From contig CAWBMK010000007.1 of assembly GCA_963789905.1 (NCBI GenBank), positions 780-64,779 of the forward strand: a stretch of DNA of 64,000 bases, written 5' to 3'. The stretch comes from an uncultured Chloroflexia bacterium. GTDB taxonomy: Bacteria; Chloroflexota; Limnocylindria; Limnocylindrales; CSP1-4. Every line of letters begins with the position of its first letter. Position 1 is the first letter of the stretch. The translations under genes and the position numbers were made by a program. Positions 6,006-27,903 of the stretch are shown in pieces. Below the pieces are notes generated by a model. The model saw only the letters and a list, made by a program, of their open reading frames with translations, did no database searches and was not told the origin of the DNA.

Positions 6006-7553
6006 TCACGGGACGGCCGGCACCGACACTCTCCCAGCCTCGACGGCCGCGACGTAGGCGGCATGGTCCCGTTCGTTGACGGCCGCGTAGGTCTCGGCGA
6101 AGTCGGCGATCGCCCCGTCGAACCTGTCGCTCGTGCCGAGGTATGCGGAGATCGCGACTGCATCGCCCGTCACGGCGTGGGCCCGCGCGAGTGACCAACC
6201 GCAGATCCCGCCGTAGAAGCCAAGGCCGACCGGTTCGATCGTCGTGATGTCGACCGAGCCCTTCATGTCCCAGAGCTGTCGCAGGTAGAAGTCGCGGCCG
6301 CCCGGTCCCCGCGTCCAGCCGAGGAGGATGTCGGGGGTCGCCTGCATGCGCTGCTGTCCGACCACGACCCGCTCGGCATGGTTGGCATGCGCGCTCTGGT
6401 CGACAAAAGGCGCGAGGACCGACGCGGAGGCCTCCTTCGCCTGAAGGATGAGCGGGTCGTTCTCGTCACGCCCTAGGAGGACGAGCACGAAACAGCGCGT
6501 CCCGACACTGCCGACGCCGACGACCTTGAGAGCGAAGTCCACGAAGCGATACCGCTCCAGGAAGTCTCGCCGGTTCTCAGGCATCGTCGCGCGGTAGTCA
6601 CTGAAGACCTTCTCCAGGGCCTTTGGGCCGCCCATCCCTTCGAGGTCGACGTGGGTGATGACGGGCGGGTCGTCGAGGATGACCCGGCGTCCGTCCACGA
6701 CGGCCGTCAGCTTCTCGAAGGCGTGCATCCCGTCGCGCTGGCGGGCCTTGCTGAAGATGGCCTCGAGGTTCTTGCGGCGAGAGGCGCCCTCTCGGCCCTG
6801 GAGCCTTCCGGTCGCCTCGGCGGCCTCCCGGATCTCGGCCTCGGTGATCGAGGTGTACCAGACGGTCATGAGGCTCATCCCCGCGAAGCGGGCCATCCAT
6901 TGGCGATAGCTTCGGACCGTGGACATCGCTGCATCGCGGTTCTGGGCGACGCTGAAGCCACGCGCCCGGCCCGCGATGACGACGCTCGCGGCGAGCCGCT
7001 TGACATCCCACTCCCAGGGCCCGGGCAGCGTCTCATCGAAGTCATTGGCGTCGAAGACGAGCGTTCGCTCGGGTGAGGCGAACAGTCCGAAGTTGCTGAG
7101 GTGGGCGTCACCACTGGCCTGGACGAGGATGTCCGTGCGGGGCGTGGTCCCGAGGTCGAACGCCATCACGGCTGGGGTCCCGCGGTAGTAGGCGAACGCC
7201 GACTCAGCCATCCGCTCGTGGCGGACGGGAACGAGGTCCTGGAGCCGGTCCTCCTCCTGGGCGGCCAGGATCGCGATCGGGTCGCGGCCGGGGGCGGGTT
7301 CGAAGGTGGCGTGGTCCACTCGCGGGACCCGCTTGCGGGCCGCCCTGCCCGCCGCGGACCGTTCACTCGGAGGGACCCAGGGTCGAGCCGTCCAGGTGGC
7401 GCCTTGGGCCGGGAGATCCGCCTGCCATGCGGCGTCGAACGCGGTCGGGGCCTCGTGGCCCGGAGTCGTTCTCTGCGACCGTCGCACCGGTTGTGCTGGT
7501 TCAGTCAATGGGGATGTCCTCGGATCAAAGCCGACAGGAAGAACCGGCTCCAT
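6006..7553 (-). CDS. DUF2252 family protein (start uncertain)
   Basis: RMAESAFAYYRGTPAVMA, GDAHLSNFG, FDANDFDETLPGPWEWDVKRL, KVVGVGSVGTRC, RDFYLRQLWDMKGS. Confidence 0.9.
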   Translation of the reverse strand: MEPVLPVGFDPRTSPLTEPAQPVRRSQRTTPGHEAPTAFDAAWQADLPAQGATWTARPWVPPSERSAAGRAARKRVPRVDHATFEPAPGRDPIAILAAQEEDRLQDLVPVRHERMAESAFAYYRGTPAVMAFDLGTTPRTDILVQASGDAHLSNFGLFASPERTLVFDANDFDETLPGPWEWDVKRLAASVVIAGRARGFSVAQNRDAAMSTVRSYRQWMARFAGMSLMTVWYTSITEAEIREAAEATGRLQGREGASRRKNLEAIFSKARQRDGMHAFEKLTAVVDGRRVILDDPPVITHVDLEGMGGPKALEKVFSDYRATMPENRRDFLERYRFVDFALKVVGVGSVGTRCFVLVLLGRDENDPLILQAKEASASVLAPFVDQSAHANHAERVVVGQQRMQATPDILLGWTRGPGGRDFYLRQLWDMKGSVDITTIEPVGLGFYGGICGWSLARAHAVTGDAVAISAYLGTSDRFDGAIADFAETYAAVNERDHAAYVAAVEAGRVSVPAVP

Positions 7554-7577
7554 TTCAGGGCTTCGCGACAGCCGGAG

Positions 7578-7598
7578 CATCCTCCCATTCGGAGGACA
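7578..7598. promoter_or_regulatory. Palindromic box type A, CATCCTCC-N5-GGAGGACA
   Basis: One of five copies of C(A/T)TCCTCC-N5-GGAGGA(T/A)G; in the divergent DUF2252/DUF1269 intergenic region. Confidence 0.65.
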
Positions 7599-7641
7599 CA
7601 CTCGATCTGGCCGATCGGCATGAGCGCTCCTTCGATGGCGC

Positions 7642-7662
7642 CTTCCTCCGAAGGGGAGGATG
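7642..7662. promoter_or_regulatory. Palindromic box type A, CTTCCTCC-GAAGG-GGAGGATG
   Basis: 19 bp identical to the box at 13805. Confidence 0.7.
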
Positions 7663-7827
7663 TAGCCGGCCCGTGACACGGGCTACGGTGCGAACGTCCG
7701 GGTGGCCTCGCAAGCGGTCGACGTGCCTGGACGGTCGTCGCAAGCGTTTCCACGCTTCCCTTGCGCACGAGAAACGGTCCGCCGCAGAGGGACCGATGCG
7801 TCGACCGCGAGGAGTTGAGGTATCGAT

Positions 7828-8472
7828 GTGACAGACCAACAGACGACCCCCGAGATGACATCGGCCACCGACGCCGACGACAGCGTCGTCGTCACGGGCC
7901 AGGTGGCGGACGAGCAAGGTGTGCTCGCCGAGGGCGCGATCGCTGCTCAAGGGCCCCATGCGCTCATCGTCGCCCGGTTCGCGGACCCGACCTTGGCGAT
8001 GAGCACATATGACGATCTCATCGACGCCGAGGTCGCGGGGTTCCTCGAGGTCGACGGCGTCCTCGTGGTCAAAGCGGACGAGAAAGGCCAACTCCACGTC
8101 CAGAAGATGACCGACCACAGCACGCGTACGGGCCTGAAGTGGGGCATCGTCGGTGGTGTCGTCGCGGCGGTCTTCCTGCCAGCCACGATCGTGGCGGGCG
8201 CGGTCGCGCTCGGCGTCGCCGGCGCGGCAGCCGGCAAGGCGCGCAACCTCTATCACCGGGTCGAGGTCGAGCAGGAGCTCGCCGGCGTCATCACGCCGGG
8301 CACCTCCGGGATCCTCGCGCTCGTCTCTGCGATGGATGCGGACGCCGTCGCGCAGAAGATGCCCGAGGCCGAGCAGGTCAAGACGGTCCCGGTCGACGAG
8401 GAAACCGCGGGGGCGATCAAGGCGGCCGCGACCGCGGCTGCGTCGCACGACGCGCCCGCGATCCCAGTCTGA
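7828..8472 (+). CDS. DUF1269-like membrane protein
   Basis: DGVLVVKADEKGQLHV, GLKWGIVGGVVAAVF glycine-rich helices, PGTSGILAL. Confidence 0.8.
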   Translation: MTDQQTTPEMTSATDADDSVVVTGQVADEQGVLAEGAIAAQGPHALIVARFADPTLAMSTYDDLIDAEVAGFLEVDGVLVVKADEKGQLHVQKMTDHSTRTGLKWGIVGGVVAAVFLPATIVAGAVALGVAGAAAGKARNLYHRVEVEQELAGVITPGTSGILALVSAMDADAVAQKMPEAEQVKTVPVDEETAGAIKAAATAAASHDAPAIPV

Positions 8473-8550
8473 GTCCGCGGTGGGTAGGACCCGTTCGGCG
8501 TGCGACCGGCGCTGGACATCGGGGAGCAGGGTCGAAGGAGACACAGGGAC

Positions 8551-9552
8551 ATGGCAGACAAGCACGTGACCGGCCCGATCCAGGTGTTCGTGGTCGGGTT
8601 CGACAAGTTCGAGGCGACCGGCCGGATCATGGCCGAGCTGCGCCGGGCGCGGAAGCGCGGCGTGATCCGCCTCGTGGACGTCATCTTCGTCCAGAAGGAC
8701 CGGCACGGCGACATCGAGAACTCGATGCACCTGACCGACCTGTCCGAGGATGAGCGGATGCGTCTCGGCGCGATCGCCGGCGGGCTCATCGGACTTCATG
8801 CGGGTGGTGTCGAGGGCATGGCCGAAGGGGCCGAGCTAGGCGCCCTCGCCGTCGCCGAGCGCGACGCCGGCCTGTCGGTGGACCGCATGCAGGAGCTCGC
8901 CGACTCGATCCCCTCCGGCAGCGCCGCGGCGATCCTCGTCATCGAGCATCACTGGGCGGCGAGCCTCCGCGACGCGATCGTGGATGCCGGCGGTCGAACG
9001 CTCATGCAGGCGATGATCGCGCCCGACGCCCTCGCCATCGTGGGTGACGAGCTGCGCGTCAAGATGGAAGCCGAGGACGCCATCGAGGCGGCCGAGGAGA
9101 TCAAGCTGGCCGCCGCTATGGAGATCGCCCAGACACTTGTCGAGGCCGAGCTCATCGAGGACGCGGCCATCGCCGAGGCAGCCGATGTCGTGGCCACGGC
9201 GCTCGCGGTCGAGGATGCCGCTGCCGAGGACGTCATCGACACGCTGTTCGCCGCCTCGCTCATCGAGGAGGCGGCCAAGGAAGAGGCCGAGAACGTCGTC
9301 CGGATGTCGCTCGACGTCGAGGAGGCAGCGACCGAGGAGGCCGAGGAGGCCGTAGTCGCGGCCGACGAGATCGAGGCCGCTGCGGCTCTTCGCGCGGTTC
9401 GTGCGCTCATAGAGGCGGACCTCATCGAGCGGGAGGCCGCCCAGGAGGCGGTCGACGCCCTCGTCGCGGCCGACATGATCGAACAGGAAGCCGCGGACGA
9501 GGCCCTCGCGTCGGTGCTCGCCGCCGAGGAGGTCGCAGCCGGCGTGAGCTGA
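8551..9552 (+). CDS. DUF6325/DUF1269-like N-terminal domain fused to acidic Ala/Glu repeat tail
   Basis: AAGGAG RBS; GPIQVFVVGF, IRLVDVIFVQKD, IPSGSAAAILVIEHHWA; ~190-aa A/E/D-rich tail. Confidence 0.7.
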   Translation: MADKHVTGPIQVFVVGFDKFEATGRIMAELRRARKRGVIRLVDVIFVQKDRHGDIENSMHLTDLSEDERMRLGAIAGGLIGLHAGGVEGMAEGAELGALAVAERDAGLSVDRMQELADSIPSGSAAAILVIEHHWAASLRDAIVDAGGRTLMQAMIAPDALAIVGDELRVKMEAEDAIEAAEEIKLAAAMEIAQTLVEAELIEDAAIAEAADVVATALAVEDAAAEDVIDTLFAASLIEEAAKEEAENVVRMSLDVEEAATEEAEEAVVAADEIEAAAALRAVRALIEADLIEREAAQEAVDALVAADMIEQEAADEALASVLAAEEVAAGVS

Positions 9553-9610
9553 GTACCAACGCATCCGGGATCGCTGGGTCAACCAATGTCAACGAAGGGA
9601 GATTCCTCAG

Positions 9611-10234
9611 ATGAGTGATGAGACGAAGAACACGCCGGCAGCGCCGGATCAGCCGATCGATGCCGCCGTGGCCACCGTCAGTGACGACCTCGGCGTCGAA
9701 GCCGTGGCCGGGATCGCCGTCCAGGGCAACCAGGCGCTCATCGTGGCGCAGTTCGCCGACATGGACTCCGCGAAGGCGGCCTACAACGCGTTGGTCGACG
9801 CCGAGGTCAACCGGGCGCTCGACATCGACGGCGTCCTGGTTGCGAACGCGGACTACCAGGGCAAGATCCACATCCAGAAGATGACCGACCATAAGACCCG
9901 CAACGGCTTCCTGTGGGGCGCCGTCGGCGGCGCCGTCATCGGCCTGATCTTCCCGCCGACCATCCTCGCCGGCGCAGTCGGCGTCGGCATCGCGGGTGCG
10001 GCCGTCGGCAAGGCCGGCAACGTGCTCATGAAGAGCGACGTGGCCGACGAGCTCGCCGGCGTCATCACCCCGGGCACGTCGGGCATCGTGGCGCTCGTGT
10101 CCATCACAGCGGTCGACGCCGTGGAGGCGACGATCCCGGACGCCAAGGTGGTCAAGTCCGCTCCGGTCAGCGACGAGGCCGCCGCTGCAGTCAAGCAGGC
10201 TGCGAAGGCCGGAGGCGACCAGGCGGCCGGCTGA
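9611..10234 (+). CDS. DUF1269-like membrane protein
   Basis: Paralogue of 7828 (KMTDHKTRNGFLWG, VITPGTSGIVAL). Confidence 0.8.
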   Translation: MSDETKNTPAAPDQPIDAAVATVSDDLGVEAVAGIAVQGNQALIVAQFADMDSAKAAYNALVDAEVNRALDIDGVLVANADYQGKIHIQKMTDHKTRNGFLWGAVGGAVIGLIFPPTILAGAVGVGIAGAAVGKAGNVLMKSDVADELAGVITPGTSGIVALVSITAVDAVEATIPDAKVVKSAPVSDEAAAAVKQAAKAGGDQAAG

Positions 10235-10275
10235 CGTCACTCGGCGGAAAGCCCACCGGCAGCAGAGCGAGCGAT

Positions 10276-10318
10276 GGAGGCGGCCCGGGATCGTATCGAA
10301 CGACTCGGGGCCGCCTCC
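10276..10318. terminator. GC-rich inverted repeat between convergent genes
   Basis: GGAGGCGGCCC...GGGCCGCCTCC. Confidence 0.45.
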
Positions 10319-10489
10319 GAGCCATGAGCGCGGCGTTCCCCTAAGCGCCCGCCCGAAGGTCACTCCGGGCGACGTGCAGCTGATGACTCAGGCCGACGCG
10401 GTCAATAAGGCGGTCGCCGGCGTGTTCACCGCGGACGAGCAGGCCAAGCTCCAGCAGCTCTTGCCGACGCTCAAGCGACAGCGCGTCGA

Positions 10490-10990
10490 TTAGATGGCTG
10501 GGCAAGTAGTCGCGAGCGCGGACTCGACAGCTGAAGCTGCCGTCTTGATCTGCTCGATCGCCGCCTTCACCGCGACAAGCTTTGCGCCGAGGCTCGGCTG
10601 ATCGCCGAGTCCGGTCAGCGTGGTCTGGAGTGCCTGGACGGAGCTCAGCAGATCGCCGACCGGCTGGCCGACAAGCTCGTGCCCCGACACGGCGAGGGCC
10701 TGAGCGGCCGACTGTACGTCGGTGAGCGCCGCCGTCACGCCGCTCACACCGACGGTGGCGAGCGTGATATCGGTGAGCGCGGTCACGGAGGCGCGGAATC
10801 GCGCCGCGTCCGCGCACATCGCGGCCGCGCCCGACGCGGTCGGAGCTGCCGAAACGATCGGAGCTGCCGACGTCGGCGCCGTGGCCGGGGCTGTCGGCGT
10901 GCCCGGTGTCGGCGACGAGGAAGCCGCGCAAGCGGCGACGGCGAGCGTCAAGAAGAGCACGGGGGCGAGGAGGCGAAAGTCTCTGGGCAT
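10490..10990 (-). CDS. Putative lipoprotein with Pro/Thr/Ala linker and helical domain
   Basis: Signal peptide with lipobox LAVAAC; PTPGTPTAPATAPT linker. Confidence 0.7.
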   Translation of the reverse strand: MPRDFRLLAPVLFLTLAVAACAASSSPTPGTPTAPATAPTSAAPIVSAAPTASGAAAMCADAARFRASVTALTDITLATVGVSGVTAALTDVQSAAQALAVSGHELVGQPVGDLLSSVQALQTTLTGLGDQPSLGAKLVAVKAAIEQIKTAASAVESALATTCPAI

Positions 10991-11290
10991 CGGTATTCCC
11001 TTTGGTCGGCGTGGCTTCGATGGACGAGCGTCGGTCACGAGACTGCGCGTTGGTCAGGGATCGGTGGCACGTTCGGGACGTGACGGCCGCTCGCGTGCGG
11101 CGGTCGCCTCCACGCGGTCGACCGCCGTGCCGATAACTATCTGCGGACGGCCGAGATCGGAACCCCGATCCGGGCGCGATGGACGTGACGTGAGCCAGCC
11201 GACCGCGTTTGCGACGAAGGGCCCGGTCACGTCGACATCACCGCTGGACCATCTGGACGCTGTCACGCTAGGCCGCGAACCTTCGAGCCG

Positions 11291-11311
11291 CATCCTCCCT
11301 GTCGGAGGAAG
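11291..11311. promoter_or_regulatory. Palindromic box type A, CATCCTCC-CTGTC-GGAGGAAG
   Basis: Between divergent lipoprotein and MalT-like regulator genes. Confidence 0.7.
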
Positions 11312-11456
11312 GAAGCTTGCTACGGGCGGGCAACGGCGCATGGAGACGCGGTGATCAGCGACGCGGAGCCGATGGACCGCCGTCTGGTCCTTCCGTTAGG
11401 ATGCCACCTTGACCAACGGGCTCGGTCTCTGAACCGCGCCGCCAGCCGGTAGACGC

Positions 11457-13915
11457 ATGCCCCCTTCCACTTCCCCTGTCGAGATCGAACCGATCGAGCT
11501 TGGAAGCCTCGCAAGCGGCGACAGCGCCGGCGGCCTGCTCGATCCTCTCCTCGAGGCGAGGCTCGTCATGCCGCGCCGGCCTGTCGGGACATTGCGCCGG
11601 ACGAGGCTGTTGCGCCAGATCCGGTCAACCCGACGACCTGTCATCTCGATGGTCGCGCCACCCGGCTACGGCAAGTCGAGCCTCCTCGTCCAGTGGGCGA
11701 CGGAAGACTCCGCGCCGGTCGCCTGGCTGACGGCCGACGAAAGTGATAGCGACCCGGTCGCGTTCCTGACCGATCTTGCGACGGCGGTCGACCGCTGCGT
11801 ACCGCTCGGTGCGGAGCTCTTCAGGGCGATCGCGGCGGTCACGGTGTCGCACCGGACCGTGGTCGGGCGATTGCTGGCAGCGATGTCCCGACCCCCGGAG
11901 CGGGTCCGGATCGCCATCGACGACGTGCACCGGATCACCTCACGGGCGAGCCTCGACATCCTTGCGGAGCTCGTCGAACACCTGCCCGAGGGGTCGCAGG
12001 TGGCCATCGCGGGACGCGCCCGGATGCGCCTCCCGTTCGCCCGCTGGCGCGCCGAGGGTTCACTGCTCGAGATCGGTCCCACGGAGCTGGCGATGGACGA
12101 GCGTGAGGCCGTCGGACTGGGACGCGAACTCGGGCTGCGGCTGCCGGCCGAAACCGCCACGCGCCTGACGCGAGAGACCGAAGGGTGGCCGGCTCTGCTG
12201 GCGCTCGCGATCCTGGGAGCCCGGACGTCTCGGGAGGGATCTCGATAGGAGCGACGCCGGCACTGACCACCTCATCGACGACTATCTGCGATCCGAGGTG
12301 CTCGAGCGCCGATCCACGGCCGAGATCACGTTCATGACCCGCACGTCGATCCTCGACCAGCTGCCCGCGCCGCTGTGCGATGTCGTGGCGGATCGACAAG
12401 GGTCGACCGATGTCCTGCGGCGACCTTGCAGGCTCGACTCTGCTGATGGACGACTACGGCGGGTCATACCGCTACCACACGCTCCTGCGCGACTTCCTCC
12501 AGCGGGAACTCGCGATCCGCGAGCCTGATCGGGTGACGGCCCTGCACGGGCGAGCCGCCGCGTGGTACCGGGCGAACCACGCCATCGAGCGTGCCGTCGA
12601 TCACGCCTTCGCGGCAGGGGACTCCGATCTCGTCGCCACGCTGGTCGGCAACGGCTTCGTCCAATTCCACTGGTCCGGCCACCGTGCGACGATCCGAGCA
12701 TGGGCCCGGCGTTTGGGTTTGGACGTTCTAAAGGCACACCCATGGCTGGCCGTGCTGGCAGCCTGGGAGGAGATCGCCGCGGGCGATGTCGCCGCTGCGA
12801 TGCGCTTCGCGGATGTAGCCGAGCGCGGAGCGTTCGAGGGAAGTCCGCCCGATGGCACGGCCTCATTCGAGTCAGGGAGGGCCATGCTCCGGGCCGGCAC
12901 GATCCGCCAGGGAGCCGAGGACGCGCTGGCGAACGCCACTCGAGCAGTCGAACTCGAAGGGGACCACGGCATGTGGCGCGGCTTCGCGCTATGGCAGATG
13001 GCCTTCGCCCGCCTCACGATCGGCGATGCGGCCGGCGCGGACGCGGCCTTGGCCGCCGCGGCCGTCGCGGCCCGATCATCGGGTGACGCCGCGATCTGGT
13101 ACTGCGTGCTCGGACACCGCGCTCTCGTGGCCGCCGAACAGGGGGCCTGGGATGCCGCGGCTGCCTCTATCGCGGAGAGCGATGCGATCACCCCGGCTCC
13201 GCAGATAGACGGGTATCTGTCGAGCGTTCCGTCTCGGGCGGTCCGCATCAAGCTGATGATCCATGGCGGCGACATCGCCGGTGCACGTCGCGAGCTCGCT
13301 CGAGCGACCAGCCTGCGACCACTCCTGACTGCCGCTGCGCCGGCTGGAGCGGTCCAGCTCCTTCTCGCGTTCGCCCGCGCCCATGTCGCGATCGACGACC
13401 CGGCCGGCGCACGCGCCCTCGTTGCCCAGGCGAACGACGTGATCCGCGATCGGCCCGATCTGGGCGTCCTCCCTGCCGAGGTGGACGCCTTCCAGGGGCT
13501 CCTGCACGCACGGGCGCCCGTGCGCGGCGGGGGCGCCACGAGCCTCTCGGTCGCCGAGCTCCGCGTCCTGTCATTCCTGCCGTATTACCTCTCGTTCAAG
13601 GAGATCGGGCAGCGCCTCGGCGTCAAGGAGACGACGATCAAGTCGCAAGCGCTTGCGATCTACCAGAAGCTGGGCGCGGCGACCCGCAGCGACGCTGTCG
13701 ACCTGGCCGTCGACGCCGGACTCCTCGAGCGCTTCTGGCCGGCCGAGGCGACCCCGCCGCGAACGAAGATCACCTTCCAGGGGCTGAATGCACGGGACCG
13801 AGCGTCTCCTCCGAAGGGGAGGATGCTCCCGCTGTCAGGAAGGGCCGAAATGGACGTGCGCTCGACCCTGGCAGCGGGCGTGAGGCCATGGCATTCAGTC
13901 CTCCCGTGCCGGTGA
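11457..13915 (+). CDS. MalT-like STAND ATPase/TPR/LuxR regulator 1, frameshifts ~12250 and ~12420; true stop probably near 13.8 kb
   Basis: Walker A APPGYGKS, IAIDDVHRI, TEGWPALL, YRYHTLLRDFL, C-terminal LSVAELRVLSFLPYYLSFKEIGQRLGVKETTIKSQ. Confidence 0.85.
13805..13825. promoter_or_regulatory. Palindromic box type A, TCTCCTCC-GAAGG-GGAGGATG
   Basis: Upstream of the MFS gene; near-identical to 7642. Confidence 0.65.
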
Positions 13916-14050
13916 GCTCCGATAGGGACCACATCGATGACTGAGGGTGAGTCTTCGAGCACAGGAGGGGATCTCGGGCCGGATGCGATCTTCCTCAATG
14001 AAGTCGGGGAGGTCGTGACGACTGCCCGTAGCCGGCGCGAGGTGTAATCG

Positions 14051-15685
14051 ATGAATCGAAAGTCAGCCCTGATCGCACTCGCAGGCGCGCAGTTCGTGAT
14101 GGTCCTCGACCAGACGGTCATGGGGGTCTCGATCAGCCAGCTGGTGGCCGACTTCGACACGACCGTCACGACGATCCAGGCGATCATCACGCTGTACTGC
14201 CTTGTCATGGCGATGCTGATGCTCGCGGGCGGCAAGATCGGCGACATCATCGGGCGCCGTCGCGCCTTCAAGATCGGCCTCGTCATCTACGGCTGCGGCT
14301 CCGCCATGACGGCGCTCGCCCCGACGGTGGCGATCCTCACCCTCGGCTGGTCGATCCTCGAGGGCATCGGCGCCTCCCTCGTGCTGCCCGCGATGGTCGC
14401 CCTGATCGCCGGCAACTTCGAGGGCAAGGACCGCAAGGTCGCCTACGCAGTCATCGGGGGCGTCGCCGGCGCCGGGATCGCGGTCGGTCCGATCCTCGGG
14501 GGCTGGGCGACCACGGTGCTCAGCTGGCGGGTCGTCTTCGCTGGCGAGGTCGTCCTCGTGATCGGGATCTTCGCCATGACCCGGTTCGTCGCGGACGCCC
14601 TCCGGAGCGGCCCGAAGCCCCGGCTCGACATCGTCGGTGCTGTCCTGTCGGCCACCGGTCTCGGGCTGATCGTCCTGGGGACCCTCCAATCCAGTGTCTG
14701 GGGCCTGATCCAGCCGAAGGACGCGCCGGTCGAGCCCTTCGGCCTTGCTCCGACCCTCTTCGTGATCGCCGCCGGCGGGGTCCTGTTGTGGGCGTTCGTG
14801 GGCTGGCAGCGGCACCGCGAGGCGATCGGGAGCGACCCGCTGGTCCACCTCGACCTGCTCAAGATCCTCCCGCTCCGATCGGGCCTCGTCGGCCTCTTCA
14901 CGCAGAACCTTCTGCTGATGGGCGTCTTCTTCACCATCCCCCTCTATCTCCAGCTCGTCCTCGGCCTCGACGCCCTCCAGACGGGCCTCAAGATGCTGCC
15001 GGTCTCGATCGCGATGTTCGCTGCGTCCGCCGCTGGGTCGCGACTTTCGACCCGCTACTCCGTGCGTTCGATCACGAGGACTGGGCTCATCCTCTCCGGC
15101 ATCGCGTGCGTCATGCTGCTGGCGACAATCAAGCCCGATCTCGCCGATCTCGCCTTCGCTGCGTCGATGGGCGTGCTGGGTGCCGGGATGGGGCTGATGG
15201 CGTCGCAGCTCGGCCTCGTGGTCCAGTCGTCGGTCGACGCCTCGGGTCGCGGCGAGGCCGGCGGGCTGCAGTTCACCGGGCAGCAGCTGGGCTCGTCTCT
15301 CGGGGTCGCCCTCATCGGCGCGATCGTCCTTGCCGGGCTGACGACCACCTTCGTCTCGAGCATCCAGGCGGACTCCCGCATCAGCGAGGAGGTCGCGGCA
15401 CAGGTCGGGACCGAGGTGAGCTCCGGGATCGACTTCGTCTCGTCTGCGGCCGTCGAGGCGGCCGCTCAGAAGGCCGGGCTCGACGCGGCCACCACGGCGG
15501 CGATCGTCGACGACTACGAGCAGGCCCAGCTCCGGTCGCTGAAGGCCGGCCTTCTGGCGGCGGCGCTCCTGGCCCTCGTCTCGCTCGCGTTCACCGGCGG
15601 CCTGCCGGGGAAAGTGCCGATAAGCACGGCAGCGCCTGGCGAAGACGCGGCCGCCCCCGACACGGTCGCGCCGGCAGCGGCATAG
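14051..15685 (+). CDS. MFS transporter, DHA2/EmrB-like 14-TMS
   Basis: AQFVMVLDQT, GGKIGDIIGRRR, GIAVGPILGGW. Confidence 0.9.
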   Translation: MNRKSALIALAGAQFVMVLDQTVMGVSISQLVADFDTTVTTIQAIITLYCLVMAMLMLAGGKIGDIIGRRRAFKIGLVIYGCGSAMTALAPTVAILTLGWSILEGIGASLVLPAMVALIAGNFEGKDRKVAYAVIGGVAGAGIAVGPILGGWATTVLSWRVVFAGEVVLVIGIFAMTRFVADALRSGPKPRLDIVGAVLSATGLGLIVLGTLQSSVWGLIQPKDAPVEPFGLAPTLFVIAAGGVLLWAFVGWQRHREAIGSDPLVHLDLLKILPLRSGLVGLFTQNLLLMGVFFTIPLYLQLVLGLDALQTGLKMLPVSIAMFAASAAGSRLSTRYSVRSITRTGLILSGIACVMLLATIKPDLADLAFAASMGVLGAGMGLMASQLGLVVQSSVDASGRGEAGGLQFTGQQLGSSLGVALIGAIVLAGLTTTFVSSIQADSRISEEVAAQVGTEVSSGIDFVSSAAVEAAAQKAGLDAATTAAIVDDYEQAQLRSLKAGLLAAALLALVSLAFTGGLPGKVPISTAAPGEDAAAPDTVAPAAA

Positions 15686-15763
15686 CTGAGGATCGGGCGC
15701 GCCCGTCCGTTCGCGGTCGCTGCGTTTCCCGCAACGTCGGCCCCCACTGGCCATGGCGCTCGG

Positions 15764-15795
15764 GGATGATCGGTCTTCATCCGTCAAGGAGGATG
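15764..15795. promoter_or_regulatory. Overlapping boxes GGATGA-N7-TCATCC (15764-15782) and CTTCATCC-N5-GGAGGATG (15775-15795)
   Basis: ~100 bp upstream of a DUF1269-like gene. Confidence 0.6.
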
Positions 15796-15894
15796 CGCGG
15801 GGCGCCGTCGACGAGCCTACTCTGGCGCCACCCCGAGCCGGACCTGCCACGCAGAGGGCGATGAGGTCTACCCGTCGGTCGAAGGGAGTTGACG

Positions 15895-16422
15895 ATGCTC
15901 CGACAGTTGGTCCTGGCGATCTTCGCCGACGAGGCGTCCGCGGACGCTGCGGCCGATGGGCTCAACCGGTGGGCGGAACAGGAAGCCGCGGCCAAGATGC
16001 TCGATACGCAACAGATCCAGGCGATGGGCGTCCTCGTACTCGACGAGAACGGCAAACTCAAGACCGAGAAGCTCGGCCCGCGAAGCATCGGGTTAGGCGT
16101 CGGGATCGGAGTCATCCTCGCGATGCTCACCCCGGTGGGCATGGCAGTCGGGATCATCGGCGGCGGGATCCTTGGCGCTCTCCACCACAGGAGCCTGTTC
16201 ATCTCCAAGGACGATCGAGAGCGCCTCGGTCGCGAGCTGCAGGGGGGCAAGGCCGCGCTCGGGGTGATGACCGACAAGATCAGCGCGCCGGCCATCTCCG
16301 CCGAGCTCGCCGCCCTCGGCGGTCGAGCCGAGACCCATGAGCTCGACGACAGCGCTGTCGCTGAGCTCGACGCCGCTTTAGGGGCGGCTCCGGCCGACGC
16401 GTCCGCGAACACGACCGCATGA
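15895..16422 (+). CDS. DUF1269-like membrane protein
   Basis: AAGGGAG RBS; LVLAIFADEASA, MGVLVLDENGKLK, LQGGKAALGV. Confidence 0.7.
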   Translation: MLRQLVLAIFADEASADAAADGLNRWAEQEAAAKMLDTQQIQAMGVLVLDENGKLKTEKLGPRSIGLGVGIGVILAMLTPVGMAVGIIGGGILGALHHRSLFISKDDRERLGRELQGGKAALGVMTDKISAPAISAELAALGGRAETHELDDSAVAELDAALGAAPADASANTTA

Positions 16423-16477
16423 CGGGTTCGCCGCGGTTCGATACCCAAGATCGGCCGCGAAACGTAGATTCGCACTG

Positions 16478-17171
16478 ATGGAGCCCGACCGACGCCCCGA
16501 TGAGACCGTGGCCGACCAGCCTATCGGGCGATCGGTGCGCGACCGTCGCACGTCGCGAGCCGCCGATGTCCTTCCCCTCGACCGGTTCAACGCGTTCACC
16601 GACGGCGTCTTTGCGATCGCGATCACGCTGCTCGTGCTCGAGCTCTCGGTCCCGGCTGTCGGCGGTCGCCTCTTGCCGGCGCTCGGTGAGCAGTGGCAGG
16701 AGTTCCTCGGCTACCTGATCAGCTTCGTGTTCATCGGCGGGATCTGGGTCAGCCACGCCGGGATGACGAAGCTGATGCGGCACGCCGACACCCTGGCGTA
16801 CGGGATCGACCTGCTGATGCTGCTGTTCGTCGGCGTCCTCCCGTTCTCGACCAACCTGATGGTCACCCATCTGTCGGGTCCGGACGTGGAGGCCGCGGTC
16901 ATCATCTACGGGGTCAACGTGCTCCTGGCGTCGCTCTGCCTGAGCCTGCTGATGTTCTACATCGCCAGCGAGCGGTCGCTCGTCATCGACGGGGTCGCCG
17001 ACGAGACCCTGGAGGGCGAAGGTCCGTCAGCGGTGGATCGTGATCGCCCTGAATGTCGCTGCGATCGCGCTTGCCGTCGTCGCACCGATCGCTGCCGTCG
17101 GGGTGTATCTGGTCATGACGTTCCTCGCGCTCGCCCTGCCGCTGATCCACCTTCGTCGGCGCCGGCACTAG
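16478..17171 (+). CDS. TMEM175 (DUF1211) family potassium channel, frameshift ~17015
   Basis: RFNAFTDGVFAIAITLLVLEL signature; YLISFVFIGGIWVSH. Confidence 0.85.
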
Positions 17172-17352
17172 GACTCCCCGGTCGGCGTGAACGGCCCGCC
17201 CGGCACGCTGTCTGGCCCCAGGCCGCGTGTCCCTGGAGCGAGTGGGTCGATTTGGCCTTGAGGAGGAAGTTGGCCGCCGGTTCGTTCAGGGAGAGGATCC
17301 GGGTCATCCGCTCAGCGCACCGGCCGGGTGGTGACACGCAGGAGAAATCGAC

Positions 17353-18051
17353 ATGGGGATGGACGCAAACCAGGACGACGTGACGACGGACGAGCCGGCG
17401 TTCGCCACCCCGGTGCTCGGTGAGTCGCGCTGGCCGATGGCGATCGCAGTCCTCGTCCTTATGACCGCCGCCCTCATCGCCCCGCCACGGCTGACCATCC
17501 TGCCCGGCTGGCTCCTCGCGGCGACCGAGGGTCTCCTGCTCCTCGCGCTCATCGTCGAGGATCCCGGCCGCATCGACCGGACCGGGCCGTGGCAGCGGCG
17601 AACGTCGATCGCGCTCGTGGTCGTGATCCTCGCCAGCACCCTCGGAGCCACGGCGCTCCTCATCTACGACCTCATGACCGGATCGCCACTGACGAGTCAG
17701 GCCGACCAGCTCCTGCTCGCCGGGGCGAAGGTCTGGCTCGGCAACAACATCGCCTTCGCGTTCCTCTACTGGGAGTTCGACGCCGGCGGGCCGGCCGTCC
17801 GCGCCCACGGGATGCCCCGCTATCCCGACCTCGCGTTCCCCCAGCAGCTCAACCCGGAGTTGGCGCCGCCTGATTGGCGGCCCCAGTTCATCGACTACCT
17901 CTACGTGGGCTTCACGACCGCCAACGCCTTCAGCCCGACGGACACGATGCCGATGGTCCACTGGACCAAGGTGGCGATGGGCACGCAGGCGCTCATCTCC
18001 TTCGTCGTGGTCGGCCTCGTCCTCGCCCGCGCCGTCAACGTCTTCACGTGA
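17353..18051 (+). CDS. DUF1345-like membrane protein
   Basis: FAFLYWEFDAGGP, DLAFPQQ, FIDYLYVGFTTANAFSPTD. Confidence 0.75.
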   Translation: MGMDANQDDVTTDEPAFATPVLGESRWPMAIAVLVLMTAALIAPPRLTILPGWLLAATEGLLLLALIVEDPGRIDRTGPWQRRTSIALVVVILASTLGATALLIYDLMTGSPLTSQADQLLLAGAKVWLGNNIAFAFLYWEFDAGGPAVRAHGMPRYPDLAFPQQLNPELAPPDWRPQFIDYLYVGFTTANAFSPTDTMPMVHWTKVAMGTQALISFVVVGLVLARAVNVFT

Positions 18052-25238: not shown

Positions 25239-27903
25239 CTAGCGACCCGATCGCGCCGACGGTCCGAGCAGCCCCAGCTCGCGCGCGCGGTCCACCGCCT
25301 CGGTGCGCCGATGCGCGTCCAGCTTCTCGTAGATGTGGCGCATGTGGGTCTTGACGGTGCTCGTCGAGACGTAGAGCTGGCCGGCGATCTCGCCCGCGGA
25401 CAGGTTGCTCGGCAGGAAGCGGAGCACTCGGAGCTCGCTCTCACTGAGCGGCTCGGGCGGCGTCGCGGGCTCGCGGCGACGTGGCTGGGAGCGACGACCC
25501 GCCGAGGACGCTGAGGAGGTCGGCCAGCAGGGCGGCGTGCGCCGTGCGGTGCCGCGGATGCCGCTCGAGGAGGTCCCGTGCCGGCACCACGACGAACGGG
25601 AAGACGAGCGAGTCGGGTTCGGCGATGTCGAGGCCGCGCTCGATATCGCGCTCGGCCGTCACGCGGTCGCCGAGCTGGTCGCGCGCGACCGCATCGCAGC
25701 ATCAGCGCCTGGATCACGGTCCCGGCGCGGACGACCGGTGCCGTCCCGTCGAGCACCGGCGCGAGTGCTTCGATGGCCGCCCCGTGGTCGCCCTCGGCGA
25801 GTCGAAGCGCGGCGAGGGCCGTCCGCGCCTCACCGAACTCGTGGTCCCGGTCGGTCAGGCTGGCGACCGTGGCCCGTGCGCCGGTCACGTCGCCCATCCG
25901 CAGCTGCGTCTGCGCGATCGACACCCTGGCCGGGCCGGTCAGCGCGTGCGAGGTGGCCAGCACGTCCTGGAGCCGCTCGGCGGCCCGGAACTCGCCGAGT
26001 GCCTCCCCGAACCGGCCCTCGCCGGCATGCAGCTCGCCGCGCACGAAGTGCACGAGCAGGGCCGTGGCGGGGTCGAGCTCCGCCCGGATCGAGTGCTCGG
26101 CTCGGTCGAGCCAGCGGCGTCCCTCCTCGAACCGGCCCTGCGCCGCGTCGGCCGAGGCCATCGTCGCCAATGCGGTGCAGGCGATCGGGTCGGTCGCCCA
26201 GCCGTGCGCCTCGGCGATCGCGATCGCCTCGCAGGCATCGTTGCCGTGCCTGCGCGAGCGAGCGTCGGGCGGCGCCAAGCCCGAGGTGCGAGAGACAGCC
26301 GATCTGGACGTAGGGCCGGTCGATCAGCCGCGCGAGCGCCAGGCCCTGCTCCAGGTGTCGCTCGGCGTCGTCCAGCCGGAACGACCAGAGCTCGACGATG
26401 CCGAGGTTCATCAACGCGACCGCCCTCGCGTCGTTGCTCAGCGTCAGCTCGGTCACCGAGTCCGCCTCGACGGGTTCGAGCAGCGGACCCACCTCGCGGA
26501 GCGCCGACTCGAGATCACCGCGCCGGCGGGCGAGCTCCAGCCGGACGACCGCGAGCATGACCGCGAACTGATGCTGCCGTTCGGCGACGACCTCCGAAGC
26601 ATGTCGCTCGGCCAGCGCGATGTATGCGGCCGCCGTCTCGAGGGAGTGCTGCGTCAGCTCGACGTAGGCGAGGAGCGCGGCCAGCTCGGGATGCGACAGC
26701 GCATCGGCGGGGAAGGCCGCGAGCAGGGCGCCGATGGTCGCGACCTGACCGTCGAGCGAGAGGCTGAGACCATGGTCGGCGAGCAGACGCCCCGCGTGCT
26801 TCCAGTCGCCGGCGGCCTGGGCGTGACGGATCGCGTCGACGGCGTGCCCATGCTCGGCGAGCCAGTCGGCGGCGACCCGGTGCAGGTCCCCGATGGCATC
26901 GGGTTCGCTGCGCCGAAGCTCGAGGAGCAGGAGATCCGCGAACAGCGGGTGGTAGCGGAACCACGACCGCTCAGGGTCGACCGAAACGACGAACGCGTTC
27001 GAGTCCTCCAGCTCGAGGAGCATCCGCTCCGAGCCGCTCGCTCCGGTGAGGCGGTCGGCGAGCGGGCCGCAGACCCGCTCCAGGATCGAGGTGCGGAGCA
27101 GGAGCTGCCTGACCTCTTCGGGCTGGCGCTCGAGGACCTCGGCGAGCAGGTAGTCCGCCACCGTCCGCTCGCTGCCGGCGAACTCGGCGACGAACCGCTC
27201 GGGGTCCGGGTGACCGGCGAGCGACATCGTGGCGAGCCGCAGGCCCGCGGCCCACCCCTCGGTCCGTGCCAGGAGCATGGCGGCGGCCTCGGCGGACAGC
27301 TCGACCCCGGAGGCATCGAGCAGTTGCCGCGCCTCCTCGGCCGACAGCCGGAGGTCGACGGCACGGAGCTCGGTCAGCTCGCCAGCCAGGCGCAGGCGAT
27401 GGAGTCCCAGGGAGGGGTCATGGCGGGTGGCCAGGACCACGTACAGCAACCGTGGCCGCCGCGCGAGCAGGAGCTCCAACTGCGCCTGCGCATCCGGCGA
27501 GACCAGCTCATGCAGATCGTCGATCACGAGCACGACGGGCTCATCGAGCGCCTCGAGCTCCGAGATGAGGCGCCGCACCAACCCTTCGCCGTCGAACTCC
27601 GGCGTCGGCGCGAGCTTCTGCGACGAGCCCATCCCTGCCGACCGCGGAGCGCAGCCGCTCGACGACCGACAGCCAGAAGCGCTGGGCGTCGCGTTCGTGG
27701 CGCTCCACCAGCACCCAGGCCGTTCGTGCGCGGAGGCCCGCCTCATCGATCCACGAGCGAAGCAGCACCGTCTTCCCGCTGCCGGGCGGCGCCGAGACGA
27801 GCGTTACTCCAGCGGAGACTCCGGCAGACAGGCGCGCGTACAGAGCTCCTCGTGCCACGACGCCAGGGGCGCGGACGGCGACCGTCTCCTCGGGACCGCC
27901 CAT
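25239..27903 (-). CDS. MalT-like STAND ATPase/TPR/LuxR regulator 2, about four frameshifts
   Basis: APPGSGKT, LVIDDLHEL, RTEGWAAGLRLA, WFRYHPLFADLL, LSESELRVLRFLPSNLSAGEIAGQLYVSTSTVKTH. Confidence 0.85.

Follow-up and report, generated by a model that had tools for sequence, protein, structure and literature searches.

Five copies of a palindrome related to the MalT box surround a gene for a MalT-like regulator (regulator 1, 11457–13787) in a 64-kb stretch of DNA from an uncultured Chloroflexia bacterium (contig CAWBMK010000007.1 of assembly GCA_963789905.1; hereafter, the window). We consider it likely, at a probability of roughly 0.78, that these palindromes are binding sites of regulator 1 that replace the −35 element of sigma-70-type promoters, in a manner resembling class II activation. 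This assignment draws on sequence comparison and on analogy with known systems: the palindrome suggests a MalT-like target because it contains the core half-site of the MalT box, co-occurs with genes for MalT-like regulators, stands at a fixed distance from −10-like hexamers, and has a precedent in Actinoplanes.

Five MalT-type palindromes cluster in noncoding DNA

Coordinates throughout count from the first letter of the window, which has a G+C content of 68.7%. An initial annotation of this DNA had drawn attention to a 21-bp palindrome at 7578, 7642, 11291, 13805, and 15775. Searching the window for CWTCCTCC-N5-GGAGGAWG (W, A or T) with at most two mismatches returned these five sites and no others, against 0.13 expected from dinucleotide-preserving shuffles (n = 100), of which none (0/100) reached five matches. 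Each site also matches exactly a 17-bp core, TCMTCC-N5-GGAKGA (M, A or C; K, G or T), which is the published MalT-type palindrome TC(A/C)TCC-N5-GGA(T/G)GA. The cores begin at 7580, 7644, 11293, 13807, and 15777, with 0.04 expected in 64 kb; no further core site at zero or one mismatch occurs in the whole 64 kb, and the five are confined to 8.2 kb of it. They are listed here with their predicted target genes, which are described further below, as are promoter classes A and B.

7578–7598, minus strand: MalT-type palindrome of the promoter of DUF2252, class A; core TCCTCCGAATGGGAGGA at 7596–7580
7642–7662, plus strand: MalT-type palindrome of the promoter of the DUF1269a-b-c operon, class B; core at 7644–7660
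11291–11311, minus strand: MalT-type palindrome of the promoter of the lipoprotein gene, class B; core at 11293–11309
13805–13825, plus strand: MalT-type palindrome of the promoter of a major facilitator superfamily (MFS) transporter gene, class A; core at 13807–13823, 17 nt past the true stop codon of regulator 1
15775–15795, plus strand: MalT-type palindrome of the promoter of DUF1269d; core TCATCCGTCAAGGAGGA at 15777–15793, its left half of the Actinoplanes type

In all five sites, GGA(T/G)GA is repeated in inverted orientation across a 5-nt spacer, the half-site centers lying 11 bp, or one helical turn, apart. The half-sites are TCCTCC/GGAGGA in four sites and mixed, TCATCC/GGAGGA, in the one at 15775. 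The copies at 7642 and 13805 share 19 identical bp, as had been stated for two of the five. Compared with the Escherichia coli decamer GGGGA(T/G)GAGG (the box as quoted in PMC7567727 and PMC9628970), GGGGAGGATG agrees at 9 of 10 positions. There is one inverted repeat per promoter; a systematic search for direct hexamer repeats upstream of the palindromes was not made.

The placement of the sites bears out the earlier view that they lie upstream of transcription units. All five are noncoding, their flanks are asymmetric, and with the motif written as nnTCCTCCGAnnGGGAGGATG every site faces the gene downstream of it. An explanation through GGAGG ribosome-binding sites had been named as a challenge to a regulatory reading. 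It fails because the cores are 72, 168, 362, 228, and approximately 96–103 nt away from the start codons of the respective genes. A reading of GGAGGATG as a ribosome-binding site followed by a start codon was likewise rejected on these distances, and the ATG at 7553 is absent from the closest relative of this genome.

For comparison across genomes, we used loci carrying the prefix L. L001–L010 are the closest relatives, uncultured Chloroflexia metagenome-assembled genomes whose DUF2252 proteins are 90% (L001) or 62%–79% (L002–L010) identical to that of the window, and L002–L080 comprise 79 DUF2252 loci from other lineages, mostly Actinomycetota. In addition, a metagenome scan for TCCTCCGANNGGGAGGATG gave 120 hits, mostly unrelated sequences, among which approximately nine contigs (L085, L117, L147, L158, L159, L180, L195, L196, and perhaps L101) are relatives.

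Each palindrome stands at a fixed distance from a −10-like hexamer

Every palindrome in the window is followed, in the direction of its target gene, by a −10-like hexamer.

7552–7557, minus strand: −10-like hexamer TGAAAT, 22 nt past the core; predicted transcription start near 7545
7684–7689, plus strand: −10-like hexamer TACGGT, 23 nt past the core
11265–11270, minus strand: −10-like hexamer TAGCGT, 22 nt past the core
13846–13851, plus strand: −10-like hexamer CGAAAT, 22 nt past the core; weak, with no A at position 2
15818–15823, plus strand: −10-like hexamer TACTCT, 24 nt past the core

The promoters fall into two classes according to this element. Class A consists of 7578, 13805, and their orthologs, with an nnnAAT hexamer 22 nt past the core; the 21-mer of 7578 recurs identically upstream of DUF2252 in L001 (at 9954), L147, and L159, and other class A copies have TGACAT, TCCAAT, TCAAAT, CGAAAT, or TGGAAT at the same offset. 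Class B consists of 7642, 11291, and their orthologs (L001, L085/L195, L117, L147, L159, L180, and L196), and every copy has TAnnnT at 22–23 nt. Orthologs of the 7642 site precede DUF1269a in L117, L147, and L159, and those of the 11291 site are followed by TAGCGT or TACCGT in L001, L085/L195, L180, and L196. Taking class B together with 15775 within the lineage of the window, TAnnnT stands 22–24 nt past the core and does so in one orientation only. The same spacing emerges in distant genomes: among 63 sites with at most one mismatch in L002–L080, TAnnnT begins exactly 22 nt past the core in 14, where approximately 0.15 are expected per offset (P ~2e-23).

If the hexamers serve as −10 elements (−12 to −7), the proximal GGAGGA would occupy approximately −41/−40 to −36/−35, leaving no separate −35 element, and the distance between the box's 3′ end and the predicted transcription start would be approximately 34–37 nt. 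That the promoters have no −35 of their own is as expected of activator-dependent promoters. The initial annotation had called the palindromes an operator of regulator 1. That they are its DNA target appears very likely from sequence and analogy; the repressor sense of the term fares less well, as an overlap with the −35 position fits an activator. A site overlapping −35 can also serve repression, through which the same regulator would block RNA polymerase, and some regulators of the actinomycete LAL group (large ATP-binding proteins of the LuxR family) do repress; SCO6993, for example, represses and autoregulates (PMC9628970). We nevertheless regard repression as improbable here, given the missing −35 and given that MalT and its Actinoplanes homolog activate from the same position.

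The fixed gap also bears on whether the palindrome might act as RNA, either as a 5′-leader hairpin that pairs GGAGG with CCUCC or as a terminator or stabilizer after the regulator gene. Such a role could be read into the perfect, G+C-rich stem of 6–8 bp with its 5-nt loop, into the resemblance of GGAGG to a ribosome-binding site, and into the position of site 13805 just past a stop codon. We find it very improbable. With a −10 hexamer at a fixed 22 nt downstream, the palindrome would lie ahead of the transcript, and the start codons are distant, as noted above. Within 7000–16500, a terminator scan found nothing at the palindromes, which have no T-run, and an Rfam scan gave two chance-level matches only (E = 3.3 and 4.6), neither at a palindrome. 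Outside the lineage of the window, moreover, the variable half-site positions (A or C in the left half, T or G in the right) combine as A with T in six sites, A with G in four, and C with T in two, so that the pair is broken in 6 of the 12 independent sites. Halves that vary independently fit two protein-contacted half-sites and argue against an RNA hairpin.

Two further features of these promoters were apparent. The divergent palindromes at 7580 and 7644 are 64 bp apart, and their counterparts are separated by 65 bp in L147 (1984/2049) and L159 (480/545) and by 75 bp in L117 (1370/1445). Spacings of 64–75 bp amount to approximately six or seven helical turns, which would align both boxes along one face of the helix and fits cooperative binding by a multimer. 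Just past the −10 hexamer, the conserved block GTG..CGTCC...G(T/G)CGACGTG(C/A)C...GTCGCAA(A/G)CG is common to the DUF1269a leader (7700–7760, plus strand) and the lipoprotein leader (11250–11190, minus strand); it is also found in L117, L147, L159, L180, L196, and L001. An RNA structure in these class B leaders was considered and rejected (consensus fold −5.85 kcal/mol, no covariation); the block could be a second protein site or the remnant of a promoter duplication. For the lipoprotein gene, a very long 5′ leader of approximately 325 nt is predicted (10931–11258, minus strand); its length differs among relatives (motif to ATG approximately 157 nt in L196), the ends being conserved and the middle variable.

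Palindromes co-occur with MalT-like regulator genes across genomes

Among L002–L080, exact palindromes number 12 in 485 kb of loci with a MalT-like gene versus 0 in 994 kb of loci without one. Counted by locus, 6/24 regulator-bearing and 0/55 regulator-free loci contain an exact palindrome (Fisher p = 4.8e-4), and allowing up to one mismatch gives 91 palindromes per Mb in the former and 19 per Mb in the latter. The regulator-bearing loci present the same neighborhood again (regulator, DUF2252, DUF1269, MFS), often with one palindrome right after the 3′ end of the regulator gene and others before DUF2252 or DUF1269. A palindrome directly 3′ of the regulator is found also in L001, L158, L196, L065, L074, L030, and L018.

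In closer relatives, the sites keep company with their target genes despite rearrangement (L001, L117, L147, L158, L159, L180, L195, and L196). The order in L158, for instance, is regulator, palindrome, DUF1269d, and in L001 and L195 the class B site remains with the lipoprotein gene while the regulator lies 5–8 kb off. Linkage of a MalT-like regulator gene to the boxes is seen in the window, L001, L158, L180, and L196. L002, a regulator-free distant Chloroflexia relative, has at ~9800–9820, upstream of DUF2252, a degenerate remnant, TCTTCCGGTGGGACGATG, with a 4-nt spacer and non-complementary changes. This suggests that the box decays where the regulator is absent.

Such distributions also speak to the notion that the palindromes are repetitive extragenic palindromes or miniature mobile elements devoid of a regulatory role. 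They are short and intergenic, and some share longer flanks (approximately 75 nt in common in class A), as might be expected of such elements. Set against this are the clustering of all copies about one regulator and their absence elsewhere in the 64 kb, the fixed orientation of each copy to its gene and fixed spacing to its −10 hexamer, and the conservation across phyla of the half-site sequence itself, beyond palindromic symmetry. We give this notion almost no credence.

Regulator 1 is a MalT homolog

Two genes in the window encode MalT-like proteins.

11457–13787, plus strand: regulator 1, a MalT-like regulator of the LAL/STAND (signal transduction ATPases that have numerous domains) type; true stop TGA 13785–13787; +1 frame disruptions near 12245, 12422, and 13763
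25266–27803, minus strand: second MalT-like regulator, 31% identical to regulator 1; in two pieces, 27653–26268 and 25448–25266

As assembled, regulator 1 reads in three frames and matches in three pieces (84%–86% identity) the protein of an intact ortholog, a 775-aa product encoded on metagenome contig L196 (493–2820), whose gene ends 22 nt ahead of its own copy of the motif. Short-read contigs of related populations have one base fewer at ~12245 and at ~12422, and alignment with L196, L158, and L001 reveals a third 1-nt insertion, near 13763, that puts the conserved TGA at 13785–13787 out of frame. The reading frame 11457–13915 given by the initial annotation must be shortened in consequence: its tail past the TGA is an artifact of this insertion, which L196, L158, and L001 lack. 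The conserved stop lies 17 nt before 13805, making that site intergenic. We think assembly error (long-read indels) a likelier source of the three insertions than decay of a pseudogene, judging from these alignments; in L001, a similar assembly, the MFS and regulator genes are also frameshifted. A different correction, in which short-read contigs appeared to leave out two bases at 13727, was set aside, as those contigs, of very high depth, probably come from other LuxR paralogs and leave the frame unrestored.

By sequence, regulator 1 is a genuine MalT homolog. The nucleotide-binding oligomerization domain of the L196 ortholog matches residues 2–383 of E. coli MalT (PDB 8bob; E = 2.7e-32) and has the Walker A motif PPGYGKSS. 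Its C-terminal GerE helix-turn-helix scores 26–27 bits in Pfam (cut-off 23.5), and over MalT residues 836–890 the DNA-binding domain shows 42% identity, with TTIK...YQKLG...R.DAV in common. For a central superhelical-repeat (TPR-like) sensor domain, the score against TPR_MalT is only 18.3 bits (cut-off 45). Recognition helices read K(T/S)(Q/E) in palindrome-bearing loci (L065, L051, and L074; TTIKSQ, TTVKTQ, NTVKTQ, NTVKTE) and KTH in many palindrome-free ones (L041, L048, L053, and others). Two loci depart from this by having KTQ without an exact box (L075 and L080), as does E. coli MalT with its KTH, which makes it a hint only.

Autoregulation, which had been proposed along with the operator, is not supported. 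The site at 11291 faces away from the regulator gene and has a minus-strand −10-like hexamer; sites of this type stay with the lipoprotein gene where the regulator lies elsewhere (L001, L195). A two-mismatch site at 11388–11404, upstream of regulator 1, was considered as a substitute and rejected: it is partly kept in L196, is lost in L180, and has no −10 at the right distance. Also upstream of the regulator start, TTGAC(C/A) at 11409–11414 (plus strand) is kept in the window and L180, with TCGACC in its place in L196. This box may serve as the −35 of a palindrome-independent promoter of the regulator's own; no convincing −10 was found for it.

Several observations count against the assignment of the palindromes to regulator 1 as an activator. 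The reading frame of the regulator in the window is not intact, and if the three +1 insertions are real, the local gene is a pseudogene. A scan of 7000–16500 for consensus sigma-70 promoters found none, and the class A promoters (DUF2252, MFS) offer only nnnAAT, missing the canonical A at position 2. Among the 24 regulator-bearing loci, 18 contain no exact palindrome, which implies that many MalT-like regulators use other sites. The Actinoplanes evidence is genetic and transcriptomic and does not include a direct binding assay (PMC7567727). Lastly, the window holds a second possible binder in regulator 2.

The last point, along with the disrupted frame, leads to the proposal that another factor, whether regulator 2 or an unlinked protein of the LuxR/GerE family, binds the palindromes and that regulator 1 is a mere neighbor. 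Actinomycete loci often have two or three paralogs (L018, L051), and the Actinoplanes region contains two MalT-like genes of which only one is the activator (PMC7567727). We hold this to be unlikely. Orthologs of regulator 1 are flanked by palindromes in L196, L158, L180, and L001, contigs on which no second regulator is visible; a palindrome directly past the 3′ end of the regulator recurs in distant lineages; and near regulator 2 there is neither a MalT-type palindrome nor a recurring inverted repeat.

Genes of the predicted regulon

The genes downstream of the five palindromes are as follows.

6006–7508, minus strand: DUF2252, protein-kinase-like (Pfam DUF2252, E = 1.7e-133)
7828–8472, 8500–9552, and 9611–10234, plus strand: three DUF1269 genes, a, b, and c (Pfam DUF1269)
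10341–10931, minus strand: lipoprotein gene (MPRDFRLLAPVLFLTLAVAAC...), with a lipobox in its translation and no Pfam family; target of 11291
14051–15685, plus strand: MFS transporter (Pfam MFS_1, E = 4e-41)
15889–16422, plus strand: DUF1269d (Pfam)
16478–17383, plus strand: TMEM175-like channel (Pfam)
17353–18051, plus strand: DUF1345 (Pfam)

DUF2252 probably starts at TTG 7508 rather than at ATG 7553, to judge by sequence conservation: the TTG follows a conserved GAGGA and is replaced by GTG in L001, and the ATG overlaps the −10-like hexamer and has no counterpart at that position in L001. Homologs of the lipoprotein gene lie downstream of the motif in L001, L180, L195, and L196. DUF1269d, the TMEM175-like channel gene, and DUF1345 (15889–18051) possibly form one operon. 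Homologs of the latter two, the first a potassium channel type, are present in the same locus of L001 (7412–9035), where the strand of the DUF1345 homolog is reversed, and TMEM175-like or DUF1345 homologs also occur in a few regulator-bearing actinomycete loci.

A metatranscriptome (X23) contains a few low-depth contigs, 90%–99% identical, over 8305–8737, 9637–9840, and 10092–10286 (DUF1269a/b/c). Relatives of the DUF1269 operon are thus probably expressed in situ, carry-over of DNA being the alternative source of these contigs. No X23 contig covers the promoters, and no transcription start can be read from this dataset.

Discussion

The system described here is of a kind already published. 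In Actinoplanes sp. SE50/110, TCATCC-5nt-GGATGA overlaps the −35 of 17 mapped transcription starts, with 34.4 ± 1.0 nt between the 3′ end of the motif and the start (Droste et al. 2020, PMC7567727). Deletion of the MalT-like gene ACSP50_3915 lowers, and its overexpression raises, the expression of approximately 40 of 51 genes of the region; according to the supplementary tables, the regulon includes the DUF1269 proteins ACSP50_3901 and 3908, and the corresponding region of A. missouriensis has a DUF2252 gene; and in relatives of Actinoplanes, gene order is shuffled while the motif stays upstream of open reading frames (PMC7567727). The authors connected their motif with GGGGA(T/G)GAGG, the MalT box of E. 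coli, which has the core GGA(T/G)GA (PMC7567727). The head-to-head geometry that the initial annotation offered as a departure from MalT had thus been reported in 2020 (PMC7567727).

The window shares with the Actinoplanes 'MRLGR' system an inverted repeat, in 6-5-6 arrangement, of the hexamer at the core of the MalT box, a predicted position of this repeat over −35, a MalT-like LuxR-family regulator encoded within the cluster, and several boxes spread over a cluster of uncharacterized membrane proteins that include DUF1269 (and, in a relative, DUF2252). In both, gene order is shuffled among relatives and the boxes stay with the genes. The systems differ in the half-sites, with four sites here being of the G variant (TCCTCC/GGAGGA) and one mixed (TCATCC/GGAGGA), and in their hosts: in contrast to the Micromonosporaceae, the present one is an uncultured member of the Chloroflexota with a small cluster of five promoters. 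A literature search found no paper linking the motif to Chloroflexota. What is new is therefore the G-variant box, the new phylum, and the cross-genome 22-nt rule for the distance between box and −10, and not a new mechanism.

MalT of E. coli and Klebsiella resembles the present system in having a homologous regulator, an identical core hexamer, and a promoter-proximal box in place of −35. Unlike E. coli MalT promoters, which contain several boxes including a direct repeat, the promoters here have a single inverted repeat each; the maltose and maltodextrin genes that E. coli MalT targets are not found; and the regulator has 775 aa as opposed to 901 aa for MalT. Actinomycete LAL regulators of the SCO6993, PikD, and PimM type are likewise large ATP-binding LuxR-family proteins that bind short promoter palindromes (PMC9628970). 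Their sites, however, are unrelated in sequence and often specific to antibiotic clusters, and no biosynthetic cluster is present here.

By analogy with these systems, regulator 1 would be switched on by a ligand or inducer together with ATP, after which a dimer, or two subunits belonging to a multimer, would bind the inverted repeat. In Actinoplanes, it is maltose to which the regulon responds. From approximately −45, the bound protein would contact or recruit RNA polymerase at a promoter without a −35 of its own, the proximal GGAGGA half-site, 22–24 nt upstream of the −10-like hexamer, standing in for that element. Five units would be turned on in this way: DUF2252; DUF1269a-b-c; the lipoprotein gene; the MFS gene; and DUF1269d, perhaps with the TMEM175-like channel gene and DUF1345. 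Their predicted products are mostly membrane proteins of no known function, along with the kinase-like DUF2252 protein. A broader proposal, which we put forward tentatively and at slightly less than even odds, is that the regulator, DUF2252, several DUF1269 genes, and MFS (with or without TMEM175-like and DUF1345) constitute one conserved, horizontally moving regulon across Actinomycetota and Chloroflexota, with the palindrome exactly 22 nt upstream of −10.

For this uncultured Chloroflexota lineage, our findings propose a concrete regulon of five promoters and about a dozen function-unknown genes. They take the palindromic MalT-type box beyond the Micromonosporaceae, from which alone it had been described, into another phylum, and they add a G-variant half-site. 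The fixed 22-nt rule, which holds in many genomes, is usable for promoter annotation and for connecting MalT-like regulators with DUF1269, DUF2252, and the membrane proteins associated with them. If the mobile regulon is real, its promoter grammar could predict the regulons of many orphan LAL regulators, and these protein families may have a common role, perhaps in a response to envelope or to ion/osmotic stress.

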